Assembly (NCBI GenBank): GCA_905480575.1
Contig: CAJQQZ010000114.1
Coordinates: 308-64,307 of the forward strand
Origin: an uncultured Alphaproteobacteria bacterium
Lineage (GTDB): Bacteria; Pseudomonadota; Alphaproteobacteria; UBA7985; CAJQQZ01
Length of the DNA stretch: 64,000 nt
Reading direction: 5' to 3'
Shown: in pieces, positions 2,275 through 55,609 of the stretch
Layout: each line of letters starts with the position of its first letter
Position numbering within the stretch: position 1 is the first letter of the stretch
Program-made: the position numbers and the translations under genes
Notes under the pieces: model-generated
The model's input: only the letters and a program-made list of their open reading frames with translations
What the model was told of the DNA's origin: nothing
Databases searched by the model: none

Positions 2275-2775
2275 ATGGCTTTTAAGATTGTCGCCAAAGA
2301 TAAAGACGATTTGACTGTTATTTCGGCCCTGCTGCAAGACTCAATTGTGGCTCGGACTGACATGACGTTTTTGCCGGGCGAGCAACGCTTTGTCATGATC
2401 GTTAACCGATTCCGGTGGGAACAATCCGACTTGGACGACATGCTTGATGATGCACTGGTCGATAACAGGTCAAATGAAGATGCCTCATATTTGGACAATG
2501 ATAAAAATCTCACTGCCACTTTTTCTAGAGTCCAATCCGCGCTCCGCATTGAAAACGTTGAGGCTGCCCAAACGCGCAATCTTGAGCAATGCGCGGATTC
2601 CGTAGGTTTGTTGAATATTTTATCAGTCGGTTTAGAGCAAAACGTCCTGCTTATTACGCTTTCTAATCAAGCAGCCATTCGGTTAAATTTGGGCCAAATA
2701 GCCTGTTATCTTGAAGACATCAGCGAACCATGGCCAAGCCCCAGTAAGCCTGATCATAACGACGAGGATAATTGA
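2275..2775 (+). CDS. DUF2948-like conserved hypothetical protein (murA-downstream gene of alphaproteobacteria)
   Basis: 166 aa. Sits between murA and his genes as in many alphaproteobacteria. Its stop overlaps the hisG start region. Confidence 0.45.
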   Translation: MAFKIVAKDKDDLTVISALLQDSIVARTDMTFLPGEQRFVMIVNRFRWEQSDLDDMLDDALVDNRSNEDASYLDNDKNLTATFSRVQSALRIENVEAAQTRNLEQCADSVGLLNILSVGLEQNVLLITLSNQAAIRLNLGQIACYLEDISEPWPSPSKPDHNDEDN

Positions 2776-2777
2776 TC

Positions 2778-3464
2778 ATGAGTGGAAGTTCTTCCATTCG
2801 AAGAAAACATCTAACGATTGCCCTCCCGAAGGGACGTTTGTTGCAATCTGTTTTGCCGATTTTGCAGAAAGCAGGTTTGACGCCAGAGGATGAATTCTTC
2901 GACAGCAAGAGCAGGCGGTTGGAATTTGACACCTCGGATCCAAACGTTGGTCTGATCCCGGTTAAGCCTTTTGACGTCGCCACCTTTGTTGCATTTGGCA
3001 GTGCCGATCTAGGTCTGGTTGGTGCCGATGTTATTCACGAGTTTGGGTACGAGGAGATTTATATTCCGGTGGATTTGGGTCTCGGCCACTGTCGTTTGTC
3101 TGTTGCGGCTACCCCCGAAGTAGCAGACCAACCGATTGGACACCTTAGTCATTTGAGGATTGCAACCAAGTACCCGAACCTCACCCGAAACTTCTTTGCC
3201 CAAAAGGGCATCCAGGCAGAGTGTGTCAAACTCAATGGTGCGATTGAATTGGCGCCCAAGTTGGGGCTTTGTCCTTACATCGTCGATATCGTGACCACTG
3301 GCAACACGCTTAAAGCCAATGGCTTGGTTGAGATGGAGACCATTTTGGAGGCAACCTCCCGGCTGATTGTCAATCGCAATTCATTCAAAACCAAGTCCGA
3401 CTCTATCAACCATTGGATTACCGCCTTTCGCGAAGCAGTGGACGACAAAGCGGACGCGGCGTAG
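2778..3464 (+). CDS. hisG: ATP phosphoribosyltransferase (short form)
   Basis: LTIALPKGRL...KYPNLTRNFF...VDIVTTGNTLKANGL motifs. The track ORF begins at TTG 2772; ATG 2778 is preferred. Confidence 0.85.
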   Translation: MSGSSSIRRKHLTIALPKGRLLQSVLPILQKAGLTPEDEFFDSKSRRLEFDTSDPNVGLIPVKPFDVATFVAFGSADLGLVGADVIHEFGYEEIYIPVDLGLGHCRLSVAATPEVADQPIGHLSHLRIATKYPNLTRNFFAQKGIQAECVKLNGAIELAPKLGLCPYIVDIVTTGNTLKANGLVEMETILEATSRLIVNRNSFKTKSDSINHWITAFREAVDDKADAA

Positions 3465-3549
3465 GGTCTGTTGACTTTAACTATTCCTTGTTCGAAGTGT
3501 TAATCGACCATAGACTAGTGGCTTGAATTTGCAGGTAAGGATCAAATAA

Positions 3550-4047
3550 GTGGCGGACGAAGCGAACCATCGCATCGTACATATCTCTTTAGAAGGCGAC
3601 CTGGGTGCGCGTGGCAACCCAGAGGTCGAGCACGAGCGCAAGATCGCCGTGTTTGACCTCATTGAAGAAAACTTCTTTCGTCCAATTCGCAGTCCTCATG
3701 GGCCCTACACGCTTTTTCTTTCGGTCGCTGACAACCGTTTGTTGTTTGATATTCGCAACGAAGAGAAGGAAGAAATGGGTCAAATCATGTTGTCCCTAAC
3801 CCCCTTCCGTCGGATCATTCGTGACTATTTCAAAGTTTGCGATTCTTACTATGAAGCGATTCGATCCGCCCCTCCGTCAAAGATTGAAGCCTTGGATATG
3901 GGCAGACGTGCCTTACACAATGAGGCCTCTGAGTTATTGATCCAGCGTTTGGATGGCAAGATTGAGTTGGACGTTGATACAGCCCGGCGATTTATCACGC
4001 TGATTTCCAGCCTCTATTTCCAAGGTGGCGCTGGTCGTGACCTTTGA
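3550..4047 (+). CDS. UPF0262-family conserved hypothetical protein
   Basis: 165 aa with a GTG start. Resembles the UPF0262 family found next to his/arsC genes in alphaproteobacteria. Confidence 0.5.
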   Translation: MADEANHRIVHISLEGDLGARGNPEVEHERKIAVFDLIEENFFRPIRSPHGPYTLFLSVADNRLLFDIRNEEKEEMGQIMLSLTPFRRIIRDYFKVCDSYYEAIRSAPPSKIEALDMGRRALHNEASELLIQRLDGKIELDVDTARRFITLISSLYFQGGAGRDL

Positions 4048-4486
4048 TGAGAATGGGCCTAAATCTGTCCTTTTCGTCTGCACAATGAACTCCGTCCGCT
4101 CTCCAATGGCTGAGGTCTTGATGAAAGCCGCGTTGCAAAGATCTGGGGTCAGTGACGTCTTTGTCGATTCTGCCGGTGTTGAAACAAGGGATATAGACGG
4201 TTTCGCAATTGCAGTGATGGCGGAACTAGATCTTGACCTGGAACGCCATGGTGCCAAAGATCTGTTTGAAGCTGAATTTGACAGCTATGATTTGATCATA
4301 ACACTATCGACCAGGGCACATGGGGCAATAGAGCAGCAAATGAAGACCTCGTCTTTTGCTACCGAACACTGGCCAGTTCCTGACCCCAGTGACCAAGATG
4401 GCAAACGCGCGCTGCGTTTAGAGGCTTTTCGTGCGGCCCGGGACGATATCTCTGCCCGTATTGAGCAACGCTTTTTCGCGAAATAG
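4025..4486 (+). CDS. low-molecular-weight phosphotyrosine phosphatase / ArsC-like protein
   Basis: CX5R P-loop (VLFVCTMNSVRSPMAE) typical of the LMW-PTP/ArsC family. Overlaps the upstream gene by 23 nt. Confidence 0.7.
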   Translation: MALVVTFDENGPKSVLFVCTMNSVRSPMAEVLMKAALQRSGVSDVFVDSAGVETRDIDGFAIAVMAELDLDLERHGAKDLFEAEFDSYDLIITLSTRAHGAIEQQMKTSSFATEHWPVPDPSDQDGKRALRLEAFRAARDDISARIEQRFFAK

Positions 4487-4573
4487 CTTTATTCGCATTG
4501 AAGTCTTGGTGCTTTTCGAAAAAGACACTATATAGGCTCCGATAATCCCGCCTAAACACCTGAAAGGTAAGGA

Positions 4574-4792
4574 ATGGCCAAAGAAGACCTCATAGAATTT
4601 ACTGGCGAAGTTATGGAACTTCTCCCTAATGCTATGTTTCGTGTACGTCTGGACAATGATCATGAGATCCTGGCTCACACATCCGGAAAGATGCGTAAGA
4701 ACCGCATTCGTGTTCTCGCTGGCGACCGCGTCAACGTAGAAATGACGCCCTATGACCTGAGTAAAGGTCGGATTACTTTCCGTTACAAATAG
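4574..4792 (+). CDS. infA: translation initiation factor IF-1
   Basis: 72 aa reading [53 protein letters not shown]; S1-fold IF-1. Confidence 0.95.
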
Positions 4793-4802
4793 TCCTGAGA
4801 CG

Positions 4803-5402
4803 GTGGCGACCGACTTTCCTTTTATTCTGGCTTCCGCGTCGCCGCGCCGACTAGATCTGCTCGCGCAGATTGGACTTGTTCCCGATCTGGTACTCCCGGC
4901 TGATATTGACGAAGAGCCGGCATCCGAAGAACAACCGCGCCCTTATGCCTTACGGATGGCGACGTCTAAGTTGGAAGCTGTTCGCAGTCATCGACAAGAT
5001 GCAGTCATTTTAGCCGCTGATACAGTCGTGGCTGTTGGACGTCGGATTTTGCCAAAAACCGAGGATGAAACAGAGGCTCGACGCTGTCTAAATCTGCTAT
5101 CTGGTCGTCGCCACCGTGTCATCGGGGCCATTGCTGTTGCTAGCCCCAGTCGGAAAATTTCGACTCGATTGGTTTCCACGGTTGTGAAGTTTAAACGGCT
5201 CCACCCAGCTGAAGTCGATAGTTACATTCAAAGCGGCGAATGGAAAAGCAAAGCGGGCGGCTATGCCATTCAAGGGTTGGCGGCAAAGTTTATCCCCTTT
5301 CTTTCAGGCTCCTATACCAATGTCGTGGGGCTTTCCCTTCCAGAAACCGCAAACCTTCTGAACTCAGCAATGGCCAATAGTTCTAAAACCTTAGAGCCAT
5401 GA
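4803..5402 (+). CDS. maf: Maf-like nucleoside triphosphate pyrophosphatase
   Basis: ILASASPRR...LAADTVV...GYAIQG Maf/Ham1 signature. Conserved infA-maf-rng order. Confidence 0.85.
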   Translation: MATDFPFILASASPRRLDLLAQIGLVPDLVLPADIDEEPASEEQPRPYALRMATSKLEAVRSHRQDAVILAADTVVAVGRRILPKTEDETEARRCLNLLSGRRHRVIGAIAVASPSRKISTRLVSTVVKFKRLHPAEVDSYIQSGEWKSKAGGYAIQGLAAKFIPFLSGSYTNVVGLSLPETANLLNSAMANSSKTLEP

Positions 5403-6304
5403 CGTCCGAGCTTTGGTTACTTGATCGAGGCCCGACACAAATTGCTGCAATCATTAGAAACGGCGATTTCATAGACATCGCACGAAAAAATGAAAACCGT
5501 CGGACTACAACGGGCAGCCGTTTCATCGGTAAAATCGTTGAAAAGAACAGCAATTTACGCGCGCTATTTGTCGACTTAGGGCTTGCACGTCCAGGCTTTT
5601 TGCCGCTTTCCAAAACCACAAAACCACTGACGATCGGACAATCTGTCGACGTTACTTGTGTAAGCGAGTTGAGTGCGCTGAAAGGGCCATCACTTAAGCT
5701 GAATGCAATACCAACCGAGAAGGCAGAGACTCCAACCTTGATATTTGATGCCGATGATCCTGTCTCCGTCTTGAGGAATAGAAAAGAAGAGATCGACCTG
5801 GCGCTCTGTAACGAGCCAGCTTTGGTCGACTGCCTTCGTGCAAAGCTGCCAACCACACAAAAGATAAGTCCTGTTGCCAAGTCCAACTATTCCGACAATT
5901 GGCAGCAAGACCTTCTTGAATATTGCGAAGCTTTGGATGATCCTACCTGGATTTTTGATGCCTCAACAGGTGCTTCCTTGTTGTTTGAACCTGGCCAGAC
6001 CCTCTTGGCCATTGATGTCAATTCTGGCAGCGGTGCGGTTCGTGATGAAGAAGAGCGTCTGAAAATTAATCTGATTGCTGCTGAAGCTATTGCCAAGCAG
6101 ATAAAATTACGACAGCTATCAGGCCAAATCGTCGTTGATTTTTTAGGCCTCGAGCGTCGCGAGTCCCGTCAGTTAGTCACACAAAAAGTCGAAAAACGGC
6201 TCGCGATTTTACCCAATCGATTTGAGGTGGTGCCAATGAATTCATTAGGTCTCGTTTGTTTGTCACTTCAACGACTCTATCCAGCATTTCATGAAAGTAA
6301 GTAG
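5399..6304 (+). CDS. compact RNase E/G-family protein (about 300 aa; S1-like N-terminus plus DNase-I-like catalytic core, no C-terminal domains)
   Basis: N-terminus RFIGKIVEKNSNLRALFVDLGLARPGFLPL resembles the RNase G S1 region. C-terminus AIDVNSGSG...GQIVVDFLGLERRESR resembles the catalytic VDINTG...IIIDFIDM region. ATGA overlap with the maf stop. Only about 60% of RNase G length. Confidence 0.5.
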   Translation: MTSELWLLDRGPTQIAAIIRNGDFIDIARKNENRRTTTGSRFIGKIVEKNSNLRALFVDLGLARPGFLPLSKTTKPLTIGQSVDVTCVSELSALKGPSLKLNAIPTEKAETPTLIFDADDPVSVLRNRKEEIDLALCNEPALVDCLRAKLPTTQKISPVAKSNYSDNWQQDLLEYCEALDDPTWIFDASTGASLLFEPGQTLLAIDVNSGSGAVRDEEERLKINLIAAEAIAKQIKLRQLSGQIVVDFLGLERRESRQLVTQKVEKRLAILPNRFEVVPMNSLGLVCLSLQRLYPAFHESK

Positions 6305-6314
6305 GAGTAAGTCT

Positions 6315-6497
6315 ATGGCCAGCACCTTAGATGAAACCGCACCTTTGCCCAGCAAGTTTTGCCCAATTTGTGAACGTCAGGCGATTTATGCGTTCCGGCC
6401 TTTTTGCTCCAAACGTTGCGCTGACGTCGATTTGGGCAAATGGTTCCAAGAATCCTACGCCATACCGACTTCAATTGATGATGAGTCCGAATCATAA
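6315..6497 (+). CDS. yacG: DNA gyrase inhibitor YacG (zinc finger)
   Basis: CPICERQ...FRPFCSKRCADVDLGKW zinc-ribbon motif. AGGAG RBS lies 8 nt upstream of ATG 6315. Confidence 0.8.
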   Translation: MASTLDETAPLPSKFCPICERQAIYAFRPFCSKRCADVDLGKWFQESYAIPTSIDDESES

Positions 6498-6663
6498 AGT
6501 CTCGTTTTGAGACTAAATCGCAGTCGTTGCTCGCTTCATAACCTGAGTGGCACGTTATATCAGCGGCGGTTTTTGCAAATTAGGACACGTTTGTTGACCA
6601 TTTGGCGACGAGCAAGTAAAAAGCCCTTTCCTGTTAAGCAGTTTGGATCGGAAAGGACCGACA

Positions 6664-8106
6664 ATGTCGACATCAATGTTGAAGTTCGTCAGCAAAGATC
6701 AGAAGGGCCCGGATAAAAGAGCGGCCGATGATCGGCGTTTAGATTTCGATGAAATCTACCAACGGTTTTCTGATACCCAAGCCAAAGACCAAGCATCACG
6801 GTGCAGCCAATGTGGCGTGCCCTATTGCCAAGTTCATTGCCCTCTCAGCAACAACATCCCTGATTGGCTTATGCTGGCGACCAACGGTCGCCTGGAAGAA
6901 GCCTATCAGCTTTCTAGCGCCACCAACAACTTTCCTGAGATTTGCGGGCGGATTTGCCCTCAGGACCGTTTGTGCGAAGGCAACTGTGTCATCGAACAGG
7001 CAGGCCACGGCACAGTCACCATTGGTTCGGTCGAGCAATACATCACAGAAACAGCCTGGGAAAATGGTTGGGTTGAACCAATCAAACCCGCTGTGGAACT
7101 TGATCTCTCTGTTGGTATCATTGGTGCTGGACCAGCAGGCCTGGCTGCAGCCGAAGAACTAAGAAAACAAGGCTACCAAGTAACCGTCTATGACCGTTAT
7201 GATCGCGTTGGTGGATTACTCATTTATGGTATTCCGAACTTCAAACTCGACAAAGCCGTTGTTAATCGACGCACCGACCTGCTGGAACAATCCGGCGTTC
7301 AATTCAAACTCAATTGTGAAATTGGCAAAGACGTTTCGTTTGAAAAACTTCGGGCGCAACATGATGCCGTTTTGATCGCGACGGGGGTTTACAAAGCCAG
7401 GGAACTGGCTGCTCCAGGTTCTGGCCTCCCATCTATCGTCCCTGCTTTGGATTACCTGACAGCCAACAACAAGAATTCCATGGGTGATAGTGTTGAAGAT
7501 TTTGACGACGGCAGCCTCAATGCAAAGGGTAAATCCGTTGTTGTAATCGGTGGCGGTGATACGGCGATGGACTGTGTCAGAACCGCCATTCGGCAGGGTG
7601 CTAAATCCGTGAAGTGCCTCTATCGCCGCAACAAAGAAAACATGCCGGGGTCACAAAGGGAAGTAGCCAACGCGGTCGAAGAAGGCGTTGACTTCGTTTG
7701 GCAAACCGCCCCGGAAGCTTTTTTGGGTGATGATAGAGTGACAGCGGTACAGGCGGTCGCCATGCGTTTAGGCGCACCAGATGAGACCGGCCGGCAAATG
7801 CCTAAGGTGGTCAAAGAATCCTCTTATAAAATTGAGGCTGATCTGGTCATCAAAGCGTTGGGCTTTGACCCAGAAGACCTCAAGGAAAAACTAGATACGT
7901 CTGATCTTAAAGTCAGCAAATGGAATACGGTTCGGGTTTCTTGGACGTCAATGATGACCTCTATTCCCGGTGTTTTCGCGGCTGGCGACATCGTCCGCGG
8001 TGCAAGTCTTGTGGTCTGGGCCATAAAAGATGGCCGCGACGCCGCCGAACAAATCAATCTTTATTTGGAAAACAAATTGGCTGAAGCGCAGTCGTCTGCA
8101 GCATAG
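6664..8106 (+). CDS. gltD: glutamate synthase (NADPH) small subunit
   Basis: CxxCG...C Fe-S motif (RCSQCGVPYCQVHCP), ICPQDRLCEGNC, and GAGPAGLAAA FAD/NAD Rossmann motifs. Start at MSTSM behind the RBS GGAAAGGA. Confidence 0.9.
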   Translation: MSTSMLKFVSKDQKGPDKRAADDRRLDFDEIYQRFSDTQAKDQASRCSQCGVPYCQVHCPLSNNIPDWLMLATNGRLEEAYQLSSATNNFPEICGRICPQDRLCEGNCVIEQAGHGTVTIGSVEQYITETAWENGWVEPIKPAVELDLSVGIIGAGPAGLAAAEELRKQGYQVTVYDRYDRVGGLLIYGIPNFKLDKAVVNRRTDLLEQSGVQFKLNCEIGKDVSFEKLRAQHDAVLIATGVYKARELAAPGSGLPSIVPALDYLTANNKNSMGDSVEDFDDGSLNAKGKSVVVIGGGDTAMDCVRTAIRQGAKSVKCLYRRNKENMPGSQREVANAVEEGVDFVWQTAPEAFLGDDRVTAVQAVAMRLGAPDETGRQMPKVVKESSYKIEADLVIKALGFDPEDLKEKLDTSDLKVSKWNTVRVSWTSMMTSIPGVFAAGDIVRGASLVVWAIKDGRDAAEQINLYLENKLAEAQSSAA

Positions 8107-8128
8107 CCAATTGAAGGAGAGTAGAACC

Positions 8129-11100
8129 ATGGCAAAATTGAGCAAAGCTTCCTTGAACGCACCTTCCTGGAGAGAACGTCAAGCCGATCTCGAAGCAAAT
8201 GGTCTTTACGATCGCCGGGATGAAAAGGACGCTTGTGGTGTTGGCCTTGTCGCCGCTATCGACGGTAAAGCCACGCGCAAGGTTGTTGATTCGGCGATCC
8301 AAGCACTAAAGTCAGTCTGGCACAGAGGCGCGATCGGTGCCGATGGTAAAACTGGCGACGGAGCCGGAATCCGCCTCGCTATTCCTCAGGAGTTTTTCCG
8401 CAAGCACATTGGTAGAACAGGCCACGTACCTGGTCCGGATGCTGAGATCGCCGTGGGCATGATCTTTCTACCCCGCACGGATCTAGATGCAAAAGAACGC
8501 TGCCGTGTGGTGGTGGAACGCGAGATTTTGAATTTCGGCTACAAAATCTACGGCTGGCGCCAAGTACCGGTGGAAGAATCGGTCTTGGGTGAGAAAGCTG
8601 ACGAAGCTCGCCCCGAAATCGAGCAGATCATGATCGAGAAATCCGTAAACATCTCTAGCGAACAGATGGAGCGGGATCTCTACCTCATTCGCCGCCGCAT
8701 TGAAAAAGCAGTTCGCTCCTATTCAATTCCGGATTTTTACATCTGCTCCCTTTCTTTGAAGTCTGTGATCTACAAAGGCATGTTTTTGGCTGAAGACATT
8801 GATGTTTTCTTTCCTGACCTTCAGGACCCGGGATTCAAGTCTCATTTCGCTGTTTACCACCAACGCTATTCGACCAACACTTTCCCGACCTGGTGGTTGG
8901 CCCAGCCCTTCCGCGTCCTCGCTCACAACGGCGAAATCAATACGATCCAAGGCAATGAGAATTGGATGCATGCTCATGAGAGCCGCATGGAAAGCGAGTT
9001 TTTCAGCCCTGAACAACTGGTTGATATCCGACCAGCGGTACAGCCTGGCAGCTCTGACTCGGCTTCTCTGGATGCCGTGTTCGAACTCATGTCCTTGAAC
9101 GGGCGCAATCTGCCCATGGTCAAAACGCTGATGATTCCTGAAGCTTGGGAAGCCCGCAACATCAAGGCCGATCACCGCGATCTTTATGCCTATTGCGGCT
9201 CCGTCATGGAGCCTTGGGATGGCCCGGCGGCCATTTGCGCCGTTGCCGGTGACTGGGCCGTCGCGGGCATGGACCGAAATGGTCTGCGGCCCCTGCGTTA
9301 CAGTTTGACCAGCGACAACCTTCTCATCGCCGGATCAGAAACCGGGATGGTCCCTGTCGACGAACCTACGATCATCGAAAAAGGCCGTCTTGGGCCTGGT
9401 GAAATGATAGCCGTCGACTTTGCCGGTCAACGCCTGCTGAAAGATCAAGAAATCAAAGATGAATTAGCGGCAAGCCAGGACTTTTCCGGTTGGGGCAAAA
9501 ATATCAAGGTCCTCGATGATCTCATCACCCCAGCCAGAAGAGGCGGATCTACGGTTAACGAAGGCCCGGATCTACGCCGCCGTCAAATTGCAGCAGGAGT
9601 TACCCTTGAGGATTTGGAACTTATTCTCCATCCTATGGGTGAAACAGGCAAAGAAGCCATCGGTTCGATGGGCGATGATACGCCTCTTGCCGTCCTGTCA
9701 GAGCAACAACGCGGCATTCATCATTTCTTCCGCCAGAAGTTTTCTCAAGTAACGAATCCCCCCATCGATAGCCTGCGTGAAAAGCATGTTATGTCCTTGA
9801 CCACGCGGCTAGGCAATCTCGGCAACATCTTGGCCGAAGACGAATCACAATGCGATTTGTTCCAATTGGAATCTCCTGTACTGACCAACGGAGAGTTCGA
9901 GGCTTTGATCGGCCATATGGGCGACAGTGCCCACATTATCGATTGTAGCTACTCTGTGGCAGACGGCGATGAGGCCCTTCGGGAGGCTATCGATCGTATA
10001 AAATTCCAAGCGCAAGATGCAGTGCGTAAGGGCAGTGTCCATCTAGTTCTTTCCGATCGGGTGATTGATGCTGACCGGATGGCGATCCCAATGATCTTGG
10101 CAACTGGGGCTGTACACTCATTCCTTCAAAGTCAAAATCTTCGCACCTTTGTTTCGCTCAACGTCACCACCGGCAGTTGCTTGGATGTCCATAATTTCGC
10201 GGTGTTGATTGGCGTTGGCGCAACCACCGTCAACGCTTACATGGCGCAAGATTCTTTGATCGACCGGTACAAAAGAGATCTGTTCCCCGACCATTCACTC
10301 GATCAGGTGATTGAAAACTTTAAAGAAGCGATCAATCAGGGCTTGCTTAAGATTATGTCTAAGATGGGTATTTCCATCATTTCCTCTTATCGTGGTGGAT
10401 ACAACTTTGAAGCTGTTGGTCTTTCACGGACGCTTGTCGACGAATTCTTCCCAGGTATGGCCAGCCGGATCTCCGGCATCGGCCTCAGCGGAATTAGCAC
10501 GATCCTCAACGCCCGCCATGCAAAAGGCTACAAAGCTTCAAGCGCCGTCGTTCCTCTGGGTGGGCTTTATCGATACCGCAAACAGGGTGAGCACCATAGT
10601 TGGGAAGCGGGGCTGATGCACACCATGCAATCTGCGGTGGCCAAAGACTCCTTCTCAACGTTCAAGAAATATACAGACGCCCTTAACAACCAATCGCCGA
10701 CGGCGATTCGTGATCTATTGGGCATCAAGTACGATGAAGCCATACCCGTTGCCATCAACGATGTTGAGTCGATCACCTCGATCCGCAAACACTTTGTAAC
10801 GCCTGGCATGTCTTTGGGTGCACTCAGCCCAGAGGCTCACGGGACGCTGAACATAGCCATGAACCGCATCGGGGCGAAATCCGTTTCTGGTGAAGGCGGT
10901 GAAGTTCCGGAGCGCTATAAACCCAATCCAAATGGGGACAACGCGAATTCAGCCATCAAGCAAGTCGCTTCTGGCCGTTTCGGCGTCACTGCCGAGTATC
11001 TTAATCAATGTCGTGAGATTGAAATCAAGATGGCGCAGGGTGCCAAGCCTGGTGAAGGTGGACAGCTTCCAGGTTTTAAGGTCACGGCTGAGATCGCCCG

Positions 11101-44880: not shown

Positions 44881-46767
44881 CTACGCCGCAAAATTAGATG
44901 TGGAACCGCTCTCACGTTTCACAAAACGTAACAAAGCCATAACAGCTGCTGGCGTCATACCAGTGATACGTGAAGCAGCTCCAAGAGTATGGGGCTTAGC
45001 AGCGTTTAGTTTCTCAACGGTCTCATTAGAAAGTGACCCTATCTTGCTATAGTCCATGTCTTTTGGAAGCTTTAGTGCTTCATCCCGTCGTAGCGCTTCT
45101 ATATCAGCGTCCTGGCGACCTAAATAGCCAGAATAGAGCGCGTCGATCTCTAATTGTTCAATGACATCTGATCTAAGATCCGACAATTGAGGAAAGCTTT
45201 TAGACAGACCTCCAAAAGTAACGTTAGGAAATGCCAACATATCGGCTGCTGAGCGTTTTTGACCATCTTGGTTAACCTTGTAACCCCTCTTGGACCATTC
45301 ATTGGGCGAGAATGTCAAAGCAGCCATGGCGGCTTTAGCCTCATTTATGGCATGCACTTTGGTTTTGTGAAATTCTTCGCGCTCTTTGCCAACACAGCCG
45401 ATAGCAATTCCTCGGTCCGTCAAACGGAGGTCTGCGTTATCGGCCCTCAGTCTTAATCTGTACTCCGCTCGGCTGGTGAACATTCGGTAGGGCTCATTAG
45501 CACCTCTCGTGATCAAATCGTCGATCATAACGCCGATATAGGCCTCTGCTCGATCTAACACGAAATCTTTTTTGGAACCAGAAGCCTTCAGAGCAGCATT
45601 AATACCTGCAATCAACCCCTGCCCTGCCGCTTCTTCATAGCCGGTTGTGCCATTAATCTGCCCCGCTAAGTAGAGGTTTGGGAGCTTTTTAGTCTCCAAC
45701 GTCGGTAATAATTCTCTTGGGTCAATGAAATCATATTCGATCGCATAACCAGGTCGAATGATCCGTGCGTTCTCCAGTCCAACAATCGACGTTATCATTT
45801 GCTCCTGAACGTCTTCGGGTAATGACGTCGAGATACCGTTTGGATAGACCGTGTAATCGTCGAGGCCTTCTGGCTCTAAGAAGATCTGATGGCGTTCTTT
45901 TTCAGCGAACTTGACGACTTTATCTTCAATCGAGGGGCAATAGCGTGGACCAACGCCATCGATTTGCCCAGAATAGAGTGGTGCGCGGCTGATGTTATCG
46001 GAAATAATCTTATGCGTTTGGGGGTTTGTGTAGGTGATATGGCAATCGATCTGTGGCACTTCTACCTTGCTTGTAAGCAAAGAGAAGGGCACCGGGGGAT
46101 TATCTGCCTGTTGAGCCTCGAGAATATCCCAGTTAATTGTACGGCCATCCAACCTCGCTGGCGTGCCTGTTTTAAGACGGCCCATGGCGAACCCAACGGC
46201 TTCTAACCGCTCAGATAATTTGACAGCTGGCGCTTCATCAACACGACCAGCCGGAATTTGCTTCTCGCCTATATGAATCAATCCGCGTAGAAAGGTTCCT
46301 GTGGTTAGAACGACGGTCTTGGACTTGATTGCTTCACCGTTGTCTAGAACGACACCGCGAAGGTTTTGCTCATTATCAAAGTAGAAATCGTCCACGGCCC
46401 CGGCGATTAGAGTTAAATTCTCTACATTTGATAGAGCTTCCTGCATAGCTTCACGGTAGAGTTTGCGATCAGCTTGGGCTCTGGGTCCTCTGACAGCTGG
46501 TCCTTTGCTGGCGTTCAACATTCTGAATTGAATACCTGACTGATCAATGACTTTGGCCATGAGCCCGTCTAGGGCGTCAATTTCACGAACGAGATGGCCT
46601 TTGCCTAACCCCCCAATAGCGGGGTTACATGACATTTCGCCAATTTTGGACAAATCATGGGTAATGAGTGCTGTGTGTGCTCCCATGCGTGCGCTTGCTG
46701 CTGCTGCATCGCAACCGGCATGGCCTCCACCAACTATTATAACGTCATAGGCTACATCGTGATTCAT
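44881..46767 (-). CDS. mnmG: tRNA uridine 5-carboxymethylaminomethyl modification enzyme
   Basis: FAD-binding N-terminus [13 protein letters not shown]. 628 aa. Confidence 0.95.
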
Positions 46768-46782
46768 TCGAATTTCCTGGAT

Positions 46783-46798
46783 TGTTTCACGTGAAACA
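46783..46798. promoter_or_regulatory. parS centromere site (TGTTTCACGTGAAACA, perfect consensus)
   Basis: Exact 16-bp palindrome read in the mnmG-mnmE intergenic spacer. Confidence 0.8.
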
Positions 46799-46824
46799 AT
46801 GGCTCAAAACTTGGTCAGTCTTTA

Positions 46825-48162
46825 TTACTTTCCGATGCAAAAATCACCAAAAATGCGGTCTAACAAATCTTCAACATCAACTTGCCCAATCAATCTCCCG
46901 AGTAGTTGCGATAACTGACGCAAATTTTCGGCAAAAAGTTCAGGTGTTTCCGTCCTCATCGCCTGGTCAATCACTTCCATCGAATCGTTCATGATCTGGA
47001 TGTGACGTTCCTTTGCAACAATCTGATCCGTGCCATCGAGTGCGAAGTTCTGAGTTACCCATTCTTCTAGACGGGATAACAGATGATCTGTTCCCAAACC
47101 TTGCTTAACAGAAACAAGAAATTCTAAATTGATTGTATCTGTGCTTAAGTCAGACTTGTTGAATACTTTCCAAACTTGATCTTCTCTAAAGAAACCGTAA
47201 TCGTCGTACGCCGATTGACTGGTTACCATGTCGGATAGATCGAAAAGGAAAAGGACTAAATCAGCCTTGGAAATTTCGTCGAGGCTCCGTTGGACGCCAA
47301 GATTTTCTATTTCGTCGCCACTAGCTCGTAATCCCGCAGTATCTGTGAGTGTCACCGGCAATCCGGAAAGTTCTAATGATACCGAGATGGAGTCTCTCGT
47401 CGTACCAGCAATATCTGATACAATAGCTCGGTCTTCTCTAGCCAAGAGATTCAGCAGAGAAGACTTTCCAGCATTCGGAGGCCCCGCAAGAACAACCTTC
47501 AATCCAGACTCGAGCTTTACCGCTTTTCTTCCGTTATCCCTCTGAGTTTCGAATTCACTGCGCAGAATTTTGAGCTGATCCTGGGACTGTTTCCAAAGAT
47601 CATCTGGTAGATCCTCGTCGGGAAAGTCAATATAGGCCTCGACAAACGCAGCTGATTTGATCAGTTCCTCTCGCCACTTCGACACCTTCTCTGCCGCGGC
47701 TCCACCAATCTGTTTCAGAGAAAAATCCAGTTGCCGCCTGGTCTGAGCATTAATGAGATCTCCAAGACCTTCGATTTGGGCAAGATCCATCTTGTTGTTG
47801 TCAAAAGCATGCCTGGAAAACTCACCGGGTTCCGCCGGTCTCAAGCCTTTTCTGGTCGAAAGATCTTCCAGTATCGCCTTGATAACAGCCAGGCTACCAT
47901 GGCAATGAATTTCCCCACAATCCTCCCCTGTAAAGCTCTCTGAGCCAGGAAAGTAGACCACTAAAGTTCTATCGATCATACCTCCCAGTTGATCCCGCAA
48001 CAGACGATAGAACATCTGGCGAGGCTTAAATTCCGATACAGACAATCCGGTTAAGACAGACAATGTTGCTAACACTTCTGGGCCCGACAGACGGATAACA
48101 GCCACCGCGGACCGACCCGCAACAGTGGAAAGCGCAAATATTGTATTTTTGTTGACAGCCAT
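46825..48162 (-). CDS. mnmE: tRNA modification GTPase
   Basis: G-domain motifs GPPNAGKSSLLN and DTAG, plus a C-terminal CIGK. Confidence 0.9.
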   Translation of the reverse strand: MAVNKNTIFALSTVAGRSAVAVIRLSGPEVLATLSVLTGLSVSEFKPRQMFYRLLRDQLGGMIDRTLVVYFPGSESFTGEDCGEIHCHGSLAVIKAILEDLSTRKGLRPAEPGEFSRHAFDNNKMDLAQIEGLGDLINAQTRRQLDFSLKQIGGAAAEKVSKWREELIKSAAFVEAYIDFPDEDLPDDLWKQSQDQLKILRSEFETQRDNGRKAVKLESGLKVVLAGPPNAGKSSLLNLLAREDRAIVSDIAGTTRDSISVSLELSGLPVTLTDTAGLRASGDEIENLGVQRSLDEISKADLVLFLFDLSDMVTSQSAYDDYGFFREDQVWKVFNKSDLSTDTINLEFLVSVKQGLGTDHLLSRLEEWVTQNFALDGTDQIVAKERHIQIMNDSMEVIDQAMRTETPELFAENLRQLSQLLGRLIGQVDVEDLLDRIFGDFCIGK

Positions 48163-48173
48163 AAAACCAAATA

Positions 48174-48189
48174 TGTTTCACGTGAAACA
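48174..48189. promoter_or_regulatory. parS centromere site (TGTTTCACGTGAAACA, perfect consensus)
   Basis: Second exact 16-bp palindrome, in the rho-mnmE intergenic spacer. Confidence 0.8.
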
Positions 48190-48241
48190 AAAAAGGGGGG
48201 AACAAACTCCCCCCAAATTACAAACAGATAACCAAAGAAGT

Positions 48242-49513
48242 CTACTGATTCATAGAATCAAAGAAGTCCTGATTCGTTTTCGACGTCCTTAACTTCTCCA
48301 AAAGGAACTCCATTGAGTCCACAGCACCCATGGGCATGAGAATACGACGTAACACCCACATCTTGGACAAAGTGCCCTTATCAACAAGAAGCTCCTCTTT
48401 ACGAGTACCTGACTTGCCAATGTCGATCGCTGGGAAGGTTCTCTTGTCAGAGAGCTTACGATCCATAACAATTTCCGAGTTACCTGTACCCTTAAATTCT
48501 TCGAAGATAACTTCGTCCATGCGACTGCCGGTATCAATCAGCGCTGTACCGATGATCGTCAATGACCCGCCCTCTTCAATATTACGAGCAGCACCAAAAA
48601 ACCGCTTAGGACGCTGAAGCGCGTTGGCATCCACACCACCAGTTAAAACTTTGCCAGATGAAGGAACAACAGTGTTATAGGCACGAGCTAGACGTGTGAT
48701 GGAATCCAAAAGAATGACAACGTCATGTTTGTGTTCCACCAAACGCTTTGCTTTTTCGATCACCATTTCACTCACTTGAACGTGGCGGGTCGCTGGTTCG
48801 TCGAAAGTGGAAGATACGACTTCGCCGCGCACAGAACGCTGCATGTCGGTTACCTCTTCGGGGCGTTCGTCAATGAGCAGAACAATCAAATAACAGTTTG
48901 GGTGATTTTCGGCGATCGACTTAGCGATCGACTGTAACATCATTGTTTTACCGGTTCTCGGTGGCGCTGTCAGCAAAGCGCGTTGACCTTTCCCAAGCGG
49001 CGATACAAGATCGATAACACGTCCGGTGCGATCCTTTACCGTAGGATCGGGATTCTCCAGCCGAAATCTTTCTTCTGGGTAGAGTGGCGTTAAGTTATCA
49101 AAATTCACCCGATGGCGGGCCTTTTCAGGCTCGTCAAAGTTAATCTTAGTAATTCGGACAAGCGCAAAATAGCGTTCATTATCTTTCGGCGCACGAATTT
49201 CACCTTCGATTGTGTCACCAGTACGAACGGCGAAACGTCTTATCTGGCTCGGGCTGATGTAGATATCATCTGGGCCCGGTAGATAATTTGACTCTGGAGA
49301 GCGAAGAAACCCGAACCCGTCCTGCAGAACCTCCAAAACACCATCGCCAAAAATGGCTATGTCATTCTCAGCCTGTGTTTTCAAGACCGCAAACATAAGT
49401 TCCTGCTTACGCATAGAACTAGCATTTTCAATTTCCAATTCTTCTGCAACTTGCAGCAAATCAGCAGGCGTTTTAGCCTTTAGCTCGTGTAGGTTCATAT
49501 GTGGGGCTGACAC
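48242..49513 (-). CDS. rho: transcription termination factor Rho
   Basis: N-terminal RNA-binding domain, Walker [11 protein letters not shown], and Q/R loops. 423 aa. Confidence 0.95.
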
Positions 49514-49636
49514 TCGAATGAGTTAGGAGGTGAAATAGTCTAGGAAAAGAAGAAAGTTCCAGCAAGAATAGCCGTTAAACAACTTATCCATCGTCTACCC
49601 TGCCATCAAAATAGTGTCAAGCGCAACTTGAGTCGA

Positions 49637-50071
49637 TTAAAACGGCCGCATAACAATCATAACAACAATAACAATCATCAAAACCGCCGGAACTTCATTA
49701 ATAATCCGGAAGAATTTCTCACTGTGTCTATTGCTATCGGAAGCAAAAGCGCGTTGGCATTGACCCAAAAAGACATGAACATAGATCATGATGAACAAAG
49801 ATAACAATTTGCACCACAACCAAAAAGAGCCCCAATCAACATTACCAAAGTAAAACAACAACAAAAGCCCGCTCAAAAAAGCCACAACAAAGGCTGGTGT
49901 CATGATGGCTGTTAACAAGCGCCGTTCCATCACTTTAAACGTTTCTACGGCGTCATTATTGTCTCTCAGCTGAACATGATAGACAAACAAACGCGGCAGA
50001 TAAAGCATTCCCGCCATCCAAGATATGACGGCAATAATATGAACGGCTTTGGTGAGAAGATAGAAATCCAC
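49637..50071 (-). CDS. hemJ: HemJ-family protoporphyrinogen IX oxidase (UPF0093 membrane protein)
   Basis: N-terminus KAVHIIAVISWMAGMLYLPRLFVYH is typical of HemJ. About 4 TM helices. Sits next to hemE. Confidence 0.55.
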   Translation of the reverse strand: MDFYLLTKAVHIIAVISWMAGMLYLPRLFVYHVQLRDNNDAVETFKVMERRLLTAIMTPAFVVAFLSGLLLLFYFGNVDWGSFWLWCKLLSLFIMIYVHVFLGQCQRAFASDSNRHSEKFFRIINEVPAVLMIVIVVMIVMRPF

Positions 50072-50074
50072 GCT

Positions 50075-51112
50075 CTAATCTCGTCTTACCAACTCAATCA
50101 ATCGGCTCACATGGTCTGGGTTAGTATACTGGATGATGCCATGTCCCAGGTTAAAAACAAAAGGGCCATCTTTAAGATTGCTGAGAATAGCAGCCACAGA
50201 ACTCTCTAGATGTTCACCGCCAACAAGTAGAGACACTGGATCCAAGTTACCCTGAACTGTTTTCTTCCTCTGTAAATTGTCCCGCGCCCAAGATAAAGGC
50301 AAAGACTGATCCAAGGAAAGACAATCAAGCTGCTCCGATTCAGCGAAAGAAAGATAGCCTAAACCCACGCCCCGCGGGAAAACTATGATTGGCACAGAAG
50401 GATGAACCGTCTTCACTTTATCAACGATGCGCAAAATAGGATCTAAAGACCAACGTTTGAGATCTCCTGCAGGTATAACACCTGCCCAAGAATCAAAAAT
50501 CTGAAGCGCTTCTGCGCCGGCGTCTAATTGCTTAATCAAGTAATCCGCTGTTGCATCCACCAACAAATCTATCAACCGCTGAAACAACTCCGGCTGACCA
50601 AATGCCCACTTTTTCAACTTCATGAAATCTTTAGTGCCGCCACCTTCAATCATATAGGAGGCGACGGTCCAAGGCGCACCAGCAAATCCAATGAGAGCGG
50701 TCTCACTTGGCAAAGACTCTTTTAGTCGACCGACAGTTTGGTAGACAGGACCAAGCGCCTCGTGAAGCTTATCGACAGATAAACGGTCCAGATCAGCTTC
50801 CCCTGTCAGGGCATCCAACTTCGGGCCTTCACCTTCGGCGAACCAAAGTTTTTGTCCAAGAGCGTGGGGAATGACCAGAATATCTGAAAACAAAATCGCA
50901 GCATCAAAGCCATAACGACGGATCGGCTGAAGAGTCACTTCACAAGCCAATTCCGGATTAAAACAAAGATCAAGAAAGGAACCAGCATCTCTCCTGACTT
51001 CTTTGTACTCTGGTAAATAGCGACCTGCTTGTCGCATTAACCAAATGGGTGGACGACTAGTCTTTTGTCCTCGCAAAGCTTGGATGAAAAGTTTTTCTTC
51101 CGAACGCATCAA
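50075..51112 (-). CDS. hemE: uroporphyrinogen decarboxylase
   Basis: PIWLMRQAGRYLPEY signature. 345 aa. Confidence 0.9.
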   Translation of the reverse strand: MMRSEEKLFIQALRGQKTSRPPIWLMRQAGRYLPEYKEVRRDAGSFLDLCFNPELACEVTLQPIRRYGFDAAILFSDILVIPHALGQKLWFAEGEGPKLDALTGEADLDRLSVDKLHEALGPVYQTVGRLKESLPSETALIGFAGAPWTVASYMIEGGGTKDFMKLKKWAFGQPELFQRLIDLLVDATADYLIKQLDAGAEALQIFDSWAGVIPAGDLKRWSLDPILRIVDKVKTVHPSVPIIVFPRGVGLGYLSFAESEQLDCLSLDQSLPLSWARDNLQRKKTVQGNLDPVSLLVGGEHLESSVAAILSNLKDGPFVFNLGHGIIQYTNPDHVSRLIELVRRD

Positions 51113-51546
51113 ACACTCTTATTAATTAAAAGAAAGATATAAAGAATCTTTAGTTGTTGTTGTAGGTCATGTTGAACATGGGGATACTATTTTATCCACA
51201 TTTTGTCTCCTAAATCCACGCGGCGCTTTAACACTGTGAGTAAGATCGAAGAAAAATAAAAAATACCGTTTATTTACAATAGGTTACACAATAATAGGTA
51301 AATCGAAAAACGTCGTTGCTCTACTCTACTGTTCAGCACTGTTAAAAACTTATCCAGCCAAAATAACTTTAGGATAGAAAATAGGCTTTTACAGTTTCTG
51401 ACGAGAATTTCGAATTTTACTCACAAACCACAGAATTCAATCCCGACCTATTCACAGCTTTTTCCTCATGCAAAGATCTCCATCTGGGAACTCGAATGAG
51501 GGTGTGATAGGAAGAACCAATTGCAATCTGACTCTAGAGCCAAATT
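51113..51546. other. candidate chromosomal replication origin (oriC): AT-rich 434-bp gap between divergently transcribed hemE and the RP001-like gene
   Basis: Perfect DnaA box at 51192..51200. Degenerate boxes at 51349..51357 (TTATCCAGC) and 51448..51456 (CTATTCACA). AT-rich tract around 51249..51310. Strand switch: all genes from 42.5 to 51.1 kb are on the minus strand and all from 51.5 to 55.6 kb are on the plus strand. Conserved hemE/RP001 synteny. Confidence 0.6.
51192..51200 (+). promoter_or_regulatory. DnaA box TTATCCACA (perfect consensus)
   Basis: Read directly in the sequence. Confidence 0.6.
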
Positions 51547-52380
51547 ATGGAAAATGAAAAGTTTAATCTGCATCTCGTGTCAGACTCGACTGGAGAAACA
51601 ATTATCTCTGTTGCAAGAGCTTGTTTAGCTCAGTTTGAAAACGTCGCCGTGGAACATCATGTTCACACGCTAATTAGAACTTCAGCGCGTATGGACCGAG
51701 TCATATCCGCCATTGAGGCTCACCCTGGCCCTGTTCTCTACACCTTGGTTGATGATGAACTTCGAACAAAGTTGGACGAGACTTGCCGTCAGTTGGCCGT
51801 GCCTTCCATACCACTTCTAGACCGGGCTATTCATATGATGGCGAACTTCTTTGGTGTGGATGCAAGGGCACAACCTGGTCGTCAACATGCGCTGGATAAA
51901 GACTATTTCTCCCGTATTGAAGCGATGGACTACACTCTGGCGCATGACGATGGCCTTTGTCCGGAAGAGTTCGAATCAGCCGATGTGGTTTTGATTGGTG
52001 TTTCACGATCGTCCAAAACGCCAACCTCTGTCTACCTTGCAAATCGTGGCGTAAAAACGGCTAATATACCCTTCGTTCCAGGGCAAAAGTTGCCAGAATC
52101 CGTACTAAATTTATCTCGGCCTTTGGTGATAGGTTTGACGAAAGATCCAAAACAGCTGGTGCAGTTGAGGAGAAATCGCCTGCGTTCTTTGGGCGTAATC
52201 AATGAAACAACCTACACTGATATCGATGCAATCAAAGCTGAAGTGGCTGAAGCACGACGACTATTCTCCGAAAAGAACTGGCATATGATCGATGTGACAC
52301 GACGATCAATTGAAGAAACAGCCGCGACCATCATTAATCAGCTGGAAAAGAAACGACAGCGGGAAAAAGAAGATGCCTGA
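51547..52380 (+). CDS. pyruvate,phosphate dikinase / PEP synthase regulatory protein (DUF299 kinase/pyrophosphorylase; RP001 homologue)
   Basis: AMDYTLAHDDG and P-loop LIGVSRSSKTPTSVYLA align to E. coli PpsR (YdiA). Confidence 0.8.
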   Translation: MENEKFNLHLVSDSTGETIISVARACLAQFENVAVEHHVHTLIRTSARMDRVISAIEAHPGPVLYTLVDDELRTKLDETCRQLAVPSIPLLDRAIHMMANFFGVDARAQPGRQHALDKDYFSRIEAMDYTLAHDDGLCPEEFESADVVLIGVSRSSKTPTSVYLANRGVKTANIPFVPGQKLPESVLNLSRPLVIGLTKDPKQLVQLRRNRLRSLGVINETTYTDIDAIKAEVAEARRLFSEKNWHMIDVTRRSIEETAATIINQLEKKRQREKEDA

Positions 52381-52969
52381 CCTTATTTTGGCGTCAGCTT
52401 CGAAAGCACGTCAGACATTGCTTCACCAAGCCGGTGTCAAATTCCGAACACAGGTATCTCAACTTGATGAAGCCTCATTCAAAGCATCCCTCAAAGCGGA
52501 AGACGCGACCGCTCAAATGGCGGTGGAAGCTTTAGGAGAACTGAAAGCGCGAAAAGTCGCCCAACAAATCCCAGAATCTCTTGTTATTGGCGCTGATCAA
52601 ATACTCTCAATCAATGATATTTGGTTTGATAAACCCGTAGATCTTGAACACGCGAGGGCACATTTGGCAGCCCTGTCAGGGAAAACGCACTTTCTCCACA
52701 CATCAGTCTCTGTCCTACGTGGCGAGCAGGTCCTTTGGCACCATAACGAGACTTGCGAGATGACGATGCGTGATCTCAGTGCAGACTTTATTGACGCCTA
52801 TCTCGCCCAGGAAGGCGAGGAGGTTCTTTACTCAGTCGGTGCTTACAGATTAGAAGGACTCGGCGCACAGCTGTTTTCGAAAATCTACGGTGACTTTTTC
52901 ACAATTCTCGGCCTCCCACTTCTTCCCTTATTGGAATTCCTTAGAAACAACCAGATACTCAAACGATGA
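52373..52969 (+). CDS. Maf-like protein (second paralogue, YceF-like)
   Basis: ILASASKAR...GADQI...GAYRLEG Maf signature. ATGA overlap with the upstream stop. Confidence 0.75.
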   Translation: MPDLILASASKARQTLLHQAGVKFRTQVSQLDEASFKASLKAEDATAQMAVEALGELKARKVAQQIPESLVIGADQILSINDIWFDKPVDLEHARAHLAALSGKTHFLHTSVSVLRGEQVLWHHNETCEMTMRDLSADFIDAYLAQEGEEVLYSVGAYRLEGLGAQLFSKIYGDFFTILGLPLLPLLEFLRNNQILKR

Positions 52970-53628
52970 AAGTTCTAGGCCTCACTGGTTCTATCGCCAT
53001 GGGTAAGTCTACCGTCGCTAAAATGTTGATGCGGCGTGGCATATCTGTTCATGATTCGGATGCAACCGTCCACCGTCTGATGGCACCCGGTGGTGCTGCA
53101 TTCAAAAAAATTGCAGAAGTTTTCCCGACTGTCATCCAGGAGGGTCATATTGATCGCCAAGCGCTTGGAACGATCGTTTTTGGTCAGCCCGAAAAACTAA
53201 AAGTTTTAGAAGGGATTAGCCACCCTTTAGTGGCAAGGGAAACGAGACGATTTCTCGCTCGTCAACAATCAAAGGGAGCGGATCTCGTTGTCCTAGATAT
53301 CCCCTTGCTTTTTGAGACAGGCGCAGAAAACCGCTGCGACTTTATTGCCTGTGTTTCCGCGCCTGCATTTATCCAGCAGCAAAGGGCATTGGCGAGATCG
53401 GGTATGACGCTAGAGAAGTTTTTGTCCATTAAAGCGCGCCAAACCCCAGATTTTGAAAAGCGAAGGAACTCGGACTTCGTTCTCTCTTCTGGCTTGGGCC
53501 TAGCGGTTACGGACCGCATGGTAACGTCCATGTTAGTTAGCATCGGCGAGAACTCTAGTCGTCGTCCTTTTGCCTGGCCGCCAACTCCTCTCAAAAATAA
53601 AGCTTTTAAAGGCTCGATCTATGCGTGA
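52966..53628 (+). CDS. coaE: dephospho-CoA kinase
   Basis: Walker [13 protein letters not shown]. 220 aa. Confidence 0.85.
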
Positions 53629-54313
53629 AATTGTTCTTGATACAGAAACCACTGGCCTTGATCCCTACGATGGTCACCGTGTGATTGAAATCGGTTGTGT
53701 CGAATTGGTCAATCACTTGCCAACGAACAATCACTTTCATGTCTACATCAATCCGGAGCGCGAAGTGCCGGACGACGCCATTCGCATTCACGGCATTACA
53801 AACGATTTTCTCGTTGGCAAACCATTGTTCACGGCGGTGGCTGATGCATTTATCGACTTTATTGGTGATGCAACCCTCGTCATTCATAATGCCGAGTTCG
53901 ATATCAAATTTCTGAACTATGAACTCGAGAAAGTAAAAAAAGAGCCGCTGACGTTTGACCGGGTGATAGACACCCTGGCAATTGCACGGCGAAAATTTCC
54001 CGGGTCACCTGCGAGCCTTGACGCCCTTTGCCGCCGATACAACATCGACAACTCCAATCGAACTTTGCACGGCGCCCTCTTAGATTCGGAACTGCTGGCA
54101 GAAGTATACCTAGAACTGATTGGCGGGAAACAGCGTGGTTTTGGTTTTCAGGCTGACAATGATGAACAAGAATCGACCGCACTAAATCCCCTCCAACTAA
54201 CAAAACGGCCAAAACGAGAGGCCCGACCCCATCTGGCTAGTGACGAGGAAAAAGCGGCCCACTTGGCATTTATGGATAAAATCAGTGATCCACTTTGGAC
54301 AAAAAAGGAATAA
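53621..54313 (+). CDS. dnaQ: DNA polymerase III epsilon subunit (3'-5' exonuclease)
   Basis: Exo I motif VLDTETTG, Exo II (HNAEFD) and Exo III ([14 protein letters not shown]). Confidence 0.85.
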
Positions 54314-54367
54314 ATCAGGCCGAATCCTACAATAAGGAGATTCTGATACCCTTTTACCGAGATTCTA

Positions 54368-54392: not shown

Positions 54393-54421
54393 AACTGACA
54401 AGAAACCATGAAAGTCATCGC

Positions 54422-55591: not shown

Positions 55592-55609
55592 GACGCTTAA
55601 GCACTATTC

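Follow-up and report, generated by a model that had tools for sequence, protein, structure and literature searches.

A domain-reduced RNase G-like protein in a conserved alphaproteobacterial locus

In a 64,000-nucleotide stretch (the window) of contig CAJQQZ010000114.1 from an uncultured Alphaproteobacteria bacterium, an open reading frame (ORF) of 301 codons at 5399..6304 on the plus strand, running from ATG to TAG, encodes a compact protein related to RNase G. We consider it likely that this protein is a lineage-conserved, domain-reduced orthologue of RNase G (rng/cafA), which we infer to be an auxiliary Mg-dependent endoribonuclease that neither senses 5' ends nor forms tetramers. By sequence comparison, it is the 'large domain' of RNase E/G (Escherichia coli residues 1-400) minus the 5'-sensor subdomain. 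RNase E/G enzymes are central endoribonucleases of many bacteria, and their dependence on 5'-monophosphate sensing and on the Zn-linked tetramer has long been debated. To our knowledge, work on both has so far relied on mutants and truncations engineered in E. coli.

Retained and missing subdomains

An initial inspection of the DNA without database searches (the sequence-only reading) had proposed an RNase E/G-family gene of about 300 amino acids (aa) in an infA-maf-rng slot. This proposal held. The hidden Markov model search suggested at that stage returned a match to PF10150 (RNase_E_G) over aa 189-292 (profile positions 164-269/270; E = 1.6e-24; 87.2 bits against a cut-off of 25.5), and the slot is conserved, as described below. 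Profile positions 1-163 had no match in the 301-aa protein. A phmmer search against Protein Data Bank (PDB) sequences aligned the protein to residues 287-399 of E. coli RNase E, with a weak match to 34-74, the start of the S1 domain. Against the NCBIfam model TIGR00757 (Rne/Rng) it scored 99.5 bits, under the curated cut-off of 325.95, a shortfall that is expected because around 40% of the model is absent from the protein.

We built an alignment (A1) of the 301-aa ORF and 14 relatives and searched its profile against PDB sequences. The profile matched residues 1-401 of E. coli RNase E in one continuous stretch (E = 3e-65). The family side of the alignment had two gaps, one of about 17 residues within S1 and the other an uninterrupted block of about 75 residues following the conserved K112-G113. 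The match stopped ahead of C404/C407. Comparison of the family with E. coli RNase G by hhalign gave a probability of 100% (E = 4e-43). In a three-way alignment of the window protein with E. coli RNase G and RNase E, the last two taken from the K-12 genome, query residues 1-103 corresponded to RNase E 1-120 and residues 104-301 to RNase E 196-400; RNase E ~121-195 (RNase G ~124-197) and everything from RNase E 401 (RNase G 402) onward were absent.

The subdomain limits given for RNase E in PMC2631609 (RNase H, 1-35 and 215-279; S1, 36-118; 5'-sensing, 119-214; DNase I, 280-400; Zn-link, 401-414; small domain, 415-510) allow the window protein to be divided into parts, all on the plus strand. 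The N-terminal strands of the RNase H-like subdomain (aa 1-35; 5399..5503; model strands at aa 3-9, 13-20 and 23-31) are followed by the S1 (OB-fold) RNA-binding domain (aa 36-103; 5504..5707), about 17 residues shorter than in E. coli RNase E. A short linker (aa 104-112; 5708..5734) occupies the site of the canonical 5'-sensor subdomain, where the alignment has its single gap block. The second part of the RNase H-like subdomain (aa 113-188, RNase E ~205-279; 5735..5962) then leads into the DNase-I-like catalytic subdomain (aa 189-301; 5963..6301), which ends at the equivalent of RNase E ~400, just before the Zn-link.

The sequence-only reading had recognized the S1-like N-terminus and the absence of both the 5'-sensor pocket and the Zn-link and small domain, all of which agree with this division; it had also listed the RNase H subdomain as missing, and in this it was mistaken. 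That subdomain (E. coli 1-35 plus 215-279, enclosing S1) is present in the window protein, and its loss is ruled out by the profile alignment, the three-way alignment and the structural model described below. The sensor block, including V128, R169 and T170 (~75 residues, E. coli 121-195), was absent in the profile alignment, in the three-way alignment and in alignments with sensor-bearing orthologues from the same slot. A sensor-bearing relative of 387 aa has the missing block and matches PF10150 at positions 1-269; in sensor-less relatives, the match begins only at position ~80-108. The Zn-link motif CPxCxGxG (E. coli 401-414) is likewise absent from the window protein, the C-terminus of which is the equivalent of residue ~400. 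For the small domain (E. coli 415-510, PF20833), there was no Pfam match in the protein, and zero residues follow the DNase-I-like subdomain. The deficit relative to full-length RNase G, which was to be checked for a single missing block of about 180 residues, thus consists of one internal block of ~75 aa and a second loss, the C-terminus beyond ~400.

Active-site residues and predicted structure

The sequence-only reading had placed catalytic aspartates in the motifs AIDVNSG and VVDFLGL, and the three-way alignment supports this assignment. D206 (codon 6014-6016) and N208 (6020-6022) of the first motif and D247 (6137-6139) of the second align with D303, N305 and D346 of RNase E and with the VDINTG and IDFIDM motifs of RNase G. 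The S1 contact residues of RNase E, F57, F67 and K112, are kept as F57, F67 and K95. Among 251 well-aligned proteins from our two homologue searches, which we classified by architecture, the D303 and D346 equivalents were invariant (251 of 251) and the N305 position was N or D. The K112 equivalent was invariant in all 58 sensor-less proteins, and F57 nearly so.

An AlphaFold2 (AF2) model calculated from A1 was compact and formed a single body, with a mean predicted local distance difference test (pLDDT) score of 91.2, a predicted template modelling (pTM) score of 0.85 and no residue below a pLDDT of 50. The structure prediction suggested earlier as a check gave a confident RNase E-like fold. 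The top Foldseek matches were all to the RNase E catalytic domain (E = 5e-24; template modelling score normalized to the query (TMq) 0.74-0.76), with isolated DNase I and S1 domains ranking next. The model lay nearer to RNA-bound, closed structures of RNase E than to apo structures (TMq 0.52-0.59), although this resemblance may reflect a bias of the predictor. PF10150, the family profile, the AF2 model and Foldseek all support the call of a complete ORF (301 aa plus TAG).

The only competing reading of this DNA that had been raised, an antisense ORF of 167 aa at 5383..5886 on the minus strand, does exist in the ORF listing. It had no Pfam match at E ≤ 0.1, and the protein encoded opposite it is conserved, has homologues and a confidently predicted fold, and bears a signature of selection. 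We reject it as a gene and regard it as a non-coding shadow ORF, because it lies wholly within a conserved coding region.

Occurrence and selection

Twenty-two independently assembled contigs, which reach 423 kb and 605 kb in length and derive from different samples in Logan, ENA and JGI assemblies, encode the identical 301-aa protein. On these contigs the gene lies in a constant context of hisG, UPF0262, a low-molecular-weight (LMW) phosphatase (LMW-PTP), infA, maf, the gene itself, yacG and gltD. Full-length orthologues of 303 and 309 aa shared 61% and 56% identity with the window protein. A further orthologue at 47% identity had the same boundaries with yacG directly next, and a clade of about 20 clusters (312-328 aa) had the same boundaries at around 32% identity. 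In comparison with the 61% orthologue, the proportion of non-synonymous differences (pN) was 0.27 and that of synonymous differences (pS) was 0.82, the latter being saturated. The resulting pN/pS of 0.32 indicates purifying selection on the RNase G-like gene, weaker than that on its neighbours (0.03-0.21).

A conserved slot between maf and yacG

The gene directly follows maf, which encodes a nucleotide pyrophosphatase (4803..5402, plus strand; PF02545, E = 2.6e-53). The TGA stop of maf and the ATG of the rng-like gene overlap as ATGA at 5399-5402, which is the coupling overlap that the sequence-only reading had pointed out. Upstream of maf lies infA, encoding IF-1 (4574..4792, plus strand; PF01176, E = 1.9e-26), and downstream of the RNase G-like gene lies yacG, a member of the zinc-finger DNA gyrase inhibitor family (6315..6497, plus strand; PF03884, E = 1.8e-16).

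To assess how far this arrangement extends, we scanned one genome per species for the motif [TS]LT[AV][IV]DV[ND]SG and obtained 80 loci. The homologue lay between maf and yacG in 35 of the 80, all of them alphaproteobacterial by gene content, and UPF0262, LMW-PTP and infA were usually found upstream of maf in these 35. The maf stop and the homologue start overlapped by 4 or 8 nucleotides (nt) in 12 of 17 related loci checked. In E. coli K-12, yhdE (maf) adjoins rng with an 11-nt overlap. The position that marks the rng group (directly 3' of maf/yhdE, co-oriented and overlapping) is that of the window ORF, and we call the gene an rng orthologue because of this maf-adjacent slot, the overlap and the corresponding E. 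coli yhdE-rng pair.

Reduced architectures in the same slot

Relatives in the infA-maf-yacG slot showed four architectures. Full-length proteins of 462-487 aa were found in Baikal and other metagenome-assembled genomes (MAGs); proteins of 393-426 aa with the sensor and without the small domain in Reyranella, Virgifigura and Hypericibacter; proteins of 379-406 aa without the sensor and with the C-terminal domain in Fodinicurvata, Algihabitans and Kiloniellales; and proteins of 301-327 aa without either in the window, in the contig of the 61% orthologue and in Dongia and Dongiaceae MAGs.

Two of these contigs added detail. The slot genes of Virgifigura deserti (contig L027, ~5914-7164) and Hypericibacter (contig L022, ~2679-3920) encode the sensor and a CxxCxGxG Zn-link (CAACAGSG and CEACESTG, respectively); they stop a short way beyond it and have no small domain. 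Judged from the sequences, they add a fifth, intermediate architecture, in which the Zn-link survives and the small domain does not. In two other sensor-bearing slot genes (L023 and L062), the counterparts of R169-T170, the pair that binds the 5' phosphate, are altered (VDRAAP and IARSRAA, compared with VLRTAAA in Reyranella), so that 5' sensing may have been relaxed in the orthologous group before the subdomain was lost.

Beyond the slot, HMMER was run exhaustively over 1.84 billion representatives, and 8,524 of them were relatives at E ≤ 1e-3. The 251 classified proteins comprised 165 of canonical architecture (147 of them with the Zn-link motif), 36 sensor-less proteins with a C-terminus (349-418 aa), 28 C-terminus-less proteins with the sensor and 22 doubly reduced proteins (289-337 aa; Zn-link motif in 1). 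In the sensor-less relatives of 349-418 aa, some 85 aa form a C-terminal domain that the window protein does not have. In a neighbour-joining tree of the shared core, drawn without support values, the query clade and a Dongiaceae-like reduced clade were placed apart, and a sensor-bearing, C-terminus-less protein grouped with the latter. These placements hint, as a lead only, that the sensor and the C-terminus may have been lost independently and more than once.

Proposed function and alternative explanations

We propose that the 301-aa protein would act as a Mg2+-dependent endoribonuclease on single-stranded RNA, with the S1 domain holding the RNA over D206, N208 and D247. Having no means to read a 5' monophosphate, it would rely on direct entry alone to cleave RNA; RNase E, according to PMC2948425, is capable of rapid cleavage without stimulation by a 5' monophosphate. 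Because it cannot form the Zn-linked dimer of dimers, it would exist as a monomer, or as a weak dimer in which the DNase-I interface keeps the subunits together; in RNase E, the dimer interface is described as dominated by hydrophobic DNase I-DNase I contacts (PMC2631609). Its role as a nuclease would be auxiliary, next to a full-length RNase E whose gene would lie elsewhere in the genome. It would presumably be made together with Maf, a hydrolase of modified nucleotides that would come from RNA turnover; Maf proteins hydrolyse m5UTP, pseudo-UTP, m5CTP and m7GTP (PMC3899018). On a speculative note, co-expression with Maf might link the nuclease to the turnover of modified stable RNA. A stronger version is that the protein is a natural minimal catalytic unit of RNase E/G, active as a monomer or Zn-free dimer and independent of the 5' end, and the end point of repeated stepwise module loss in one alphaproteobacterial locus. 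We offer this version tentatively, as a possibility that may well hold but that we lean slightly away from.

Several observations weigh against an active RNase G orthologue with an auxiliary role. The gene is the fastest-evolving of its block, with 61% identity to the closest orthologue compared with 78% for Maf, 85% for GltD and 100% for IF-1. RNase G and RNase E cannot be told apart by sequence score: the protein scored 52.3 bits with NCBIfam NF008689 (RNase G) and 50.6 with NF008074 (RNase E), both far under the cut-offs (about 52 against an equivalog cut-off of 594 bits for RNase G), and the family profile scored 213 bits on RNase G and 223 on RNase E 1-529. The assignment to rng thus rests on synteny. 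A tblastn search with six family proteins found only this locus in the 64-kb window, and no full-length RNase E. Our literature search found no measurement of activity, oligomeric state or substrate for the doubly reduced class. Finally, an engineered E. coli RNase E, Rne-395, lacks the Zn-link and small domain and has sharply reduced activity (PMC7849360); by analogy, the double loss seen here may be more damaging, because Rne-395 still has its 5'-sensor.

As an alternative, the protein could have an RNA-binding or regulatory function, with little or no catalytic activity, and not be a nuclease in its own right. It might, for instance, bind RNA via S1, or associate with full-length RNase E through the latter's DNase-I-like subdomain and thereby modulate or poison the tetramer. 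Removal of the Zn-link and small domain sharply lowers the activity of E. coli RNase E (PMC7849360, PMC2631609), the gene evolves faster than its neighbours, and pairing with RNase E is conceivable because the DNase I-DNase I interface is retained. However, in the sensor-less homologues the D303 and D346 equivalents and K112 are invariant, N305 is N or D, and F57 is nearly invariant; such conservation over lineages only around 30% identical is what would be expected of an active site under selection, and we regard this alternative as unlikely.

Less probable again is that the protein is the organism's only RNase E/G-type enzyme, carrying a central role in mRNA decay in minimal form. The window has no other homologue, and for Magnetospirillum magneticum a KEGG-based table (PMC5436854) gives a 344-aa homologue and no other. 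In that table, however, an RNase E of 553-949 aa accompanies the short homologue of other cultured alphaproteobacteria. Moreover, the gene occupies the rng slot by maf, as does the non-essential RNase G gene of E. coli, and its fast evolution is unlike that of an essential hub enzyme. We therefore consider this improbable.

An ORF that falls about 190 aa short of E. coli RNase G and scores far under the NCBIfam cut-offs (TIGR00757, 99.5 compared with 325.95 bits) might raise the suspicion of an in-frame deletion of recent date, of a pseudogene in decay or of an error of assembly or binning. Such an origin is refuted as an artefact by the exact protein on 22 contigs (up to 423-605 kb) from different projects, by the 61%, 56%, 47% and ~32% orthologues with the same boundaries and yacG directly after, and by a pN/pS of 0.32 and a compact, confident AF2 model, leaving it next to no credibility. 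Between the two possibilities of the sequence-only reading, a genuine minimal form and an internal deletion, the contigs and diverged orthologues thus favour the first and exclude the deletion artefact.

Neighbouring genes and wider context

Upstream of infA, the block includes a UPF0262 gene (3550..4047) and the LMW phosphatase gene (longest ORF 4025..4486), and gltD and gltB lie on the same strand as the 5399..6304 ORF. All are on the plus strand with strong Pfam or NCBIfam matches. From its GTG start at 4025, the phosphatase ORF overlaps the end of UPF0262 by 23 nt; on related contigs, gene callers give a product of 121 aa that starts about 96 nt further in, so the true start is uncertain. 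The longest yacG ORF begins at ATG 6291 (68 aa; 6291-6497) and runs over the 3' end of the RNase G-like gene. ATG 6315 is preceded by AGGAG at 6303-6307, and the 60-aa product that it would give is the one that gene callers predict on six contigs; this ATG is probably the true start.

Directly 3' of the yacG stop there is a perfect 6-bp hairpin (AGTCTCGTTTTGAGACT) at 6498-6514. It has no T-run on the plus strand and so does not fit the simple pattern of an intrinsic terminator for the operon. In a scan of 3300..6900 for promoters and terminators, sites were no more numerous than in shuffled sequence, and searches of the 64-kb window for tRNA genes and Rfam families found none.

The gltB region of a 423-kb ENA contig encoding the identical RNase G-like protein (5731-6415 of that contig) differs from the corresponding part of the window (~8030-8800). 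The ENA contig has two small ORFs (60 aa on the plus strand and 143 aa on the minus strand) between gltD and a later-starting gltB, and the window has a single gltB ORF of 1547 aa. This discrepancy may reflect variation between strains, or else an assembly error or frameshift in gltB. Four contigs (L004, L007, L019 and L024) with a typical alphaproteobacterial UPF0262/LMW-PTP/infA/maf/rng/yacG block and IF-1 87-89% identical to that of the window carry the record titles of Acidimicrobiia, Udaeobacter, Cybelea and Binatia MAGs; they are probably mis-binned. Elsewhere in the window, mnmG, mnmE, rho and, further on, yidC are grouped on the minus strand at 44881-58969, and the cumulative GC skew falls steadily from ~16 kb onward. 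This gene set is often found near the chromosomal replication origin. The LeuS protein is 88-90% identical to metagenome proteins only, whereas among named genera (Telmatospirillum, Dongia, Magnetospirillum, Ferrovibrio and Fodinicurvata) identity is about 63-66%, which points to an uncultured Rhodospirillales-like alphaproteobacterium as the source.

Implications for RNase E/G enzymes

The protein represents a new architectural variant of a well-known enzyme family, one that is already in databases and has gone unremarked. Evolution at this locus has removed the sensor and C-terminal modules, and the active site, the S1 clamp and the RNase H-like scaffold stay under selection. Should the protein prove to be a minimal catalytic unit, neither 5' sensing nor quaternary structure would be intrinsically needed for a useful RNase E/G enzyme, and the locus would offer a ready natural deletion series with which to separate these functions. 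The intermediates in the same slot form a natural series of enzymes of 300-490 aa for testing the contribution of each module. The locus also points to a widespread, uncharacterized alphaproteobacterial nuclease that is annotated automatically as 'ribonuclease G'. The database labels of the window protein and its relatives are 'ribonuclease G' or 'ribonuclease E/G', and the practical effect on annotation is small: placement in the RNase E/G family (PF10150, COG1530) is right.

Comparison with known systems

The closest known counterpart is E. coli RNase G (rng/cafA; 489 aa). Its gene, like that of the window protein, lies directly 3' of maf/yhdE with a stop/start overlap, and both proteins have the N-terminal RNase H-like strands, S1 and the DNase-I-like subdomain with its aspartates, and both lack a long C-terminal scaffold. 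RNase G prefers 5'-monophosphorylated ends, and its orthologous group is characterized by endonuclease activity that depends on the 5' end and by maturation of the 16S rRNA 5' end. Unlike RNase G, the window protein is without residues ~124-197 (the 5'-sensor), and with them the 5'-monophosphate pocket, and without ~402-489 (the CxxC Zn-link and small domain).

With RNase E's catalytic domain, the window protein shares the subdomain order (RNase H, S1, RNase H, DNase I) and the equivalents of D303/N305/D346 and F57/F67/K112. It differs in having no 5'-sensing region (119-214), no Zn-link, no small domain and no degradosome scaffold. The archaeal FAU-1/RNase W (PDB 8rza, 465 aa) gave a much weaker, partial match, belongs to another lineage and shows no synteny.

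Among engineered forms, the nearest is Rne-395 (Caruthers et al. 2006), in which the Zn-link and small domain are removed (PMC7849360, PMC2631609); according to PMC7849360, it keeps its cleavage-site specificity and, despite its lowered activity, supports growth. Rne-395 and the window protein are cut at nearly the same point, and neither can form the Zn-linked dimer or tetramer. Rne-395 is artificial and keeps its 5'-sensor, whereas the window protein is natural and conserved and has lost the sensor as well.

For natural forms, our literature search for a sensor-less RNase G found no description of domain losses, only the length table of PMC5436854 and one passing mention. The KEGG-based S1 Table of that paper lists short second RNase E/G homologues beside an RNase E of 553-949 aa in cultured alphaproteobacteria, including Asticcacaulis (Astex_1195, 336 aa), Brevundimonas (342), Rhodobacter sphaeroides (RSP_0624, 347), HIMB59 (375) and Granulibacter (381). 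RSP_0624 is named once as 'RNase G' in an expression cluster (PMC10064930). These homologues resemble the window protein in being much shorter than RNase G, a likeness of length, as their domains are not analysed in the papers, and they coexist with a full-length RNase E. At 301 aa, the window protein is shorter still than these homologues of 336-381 aa.

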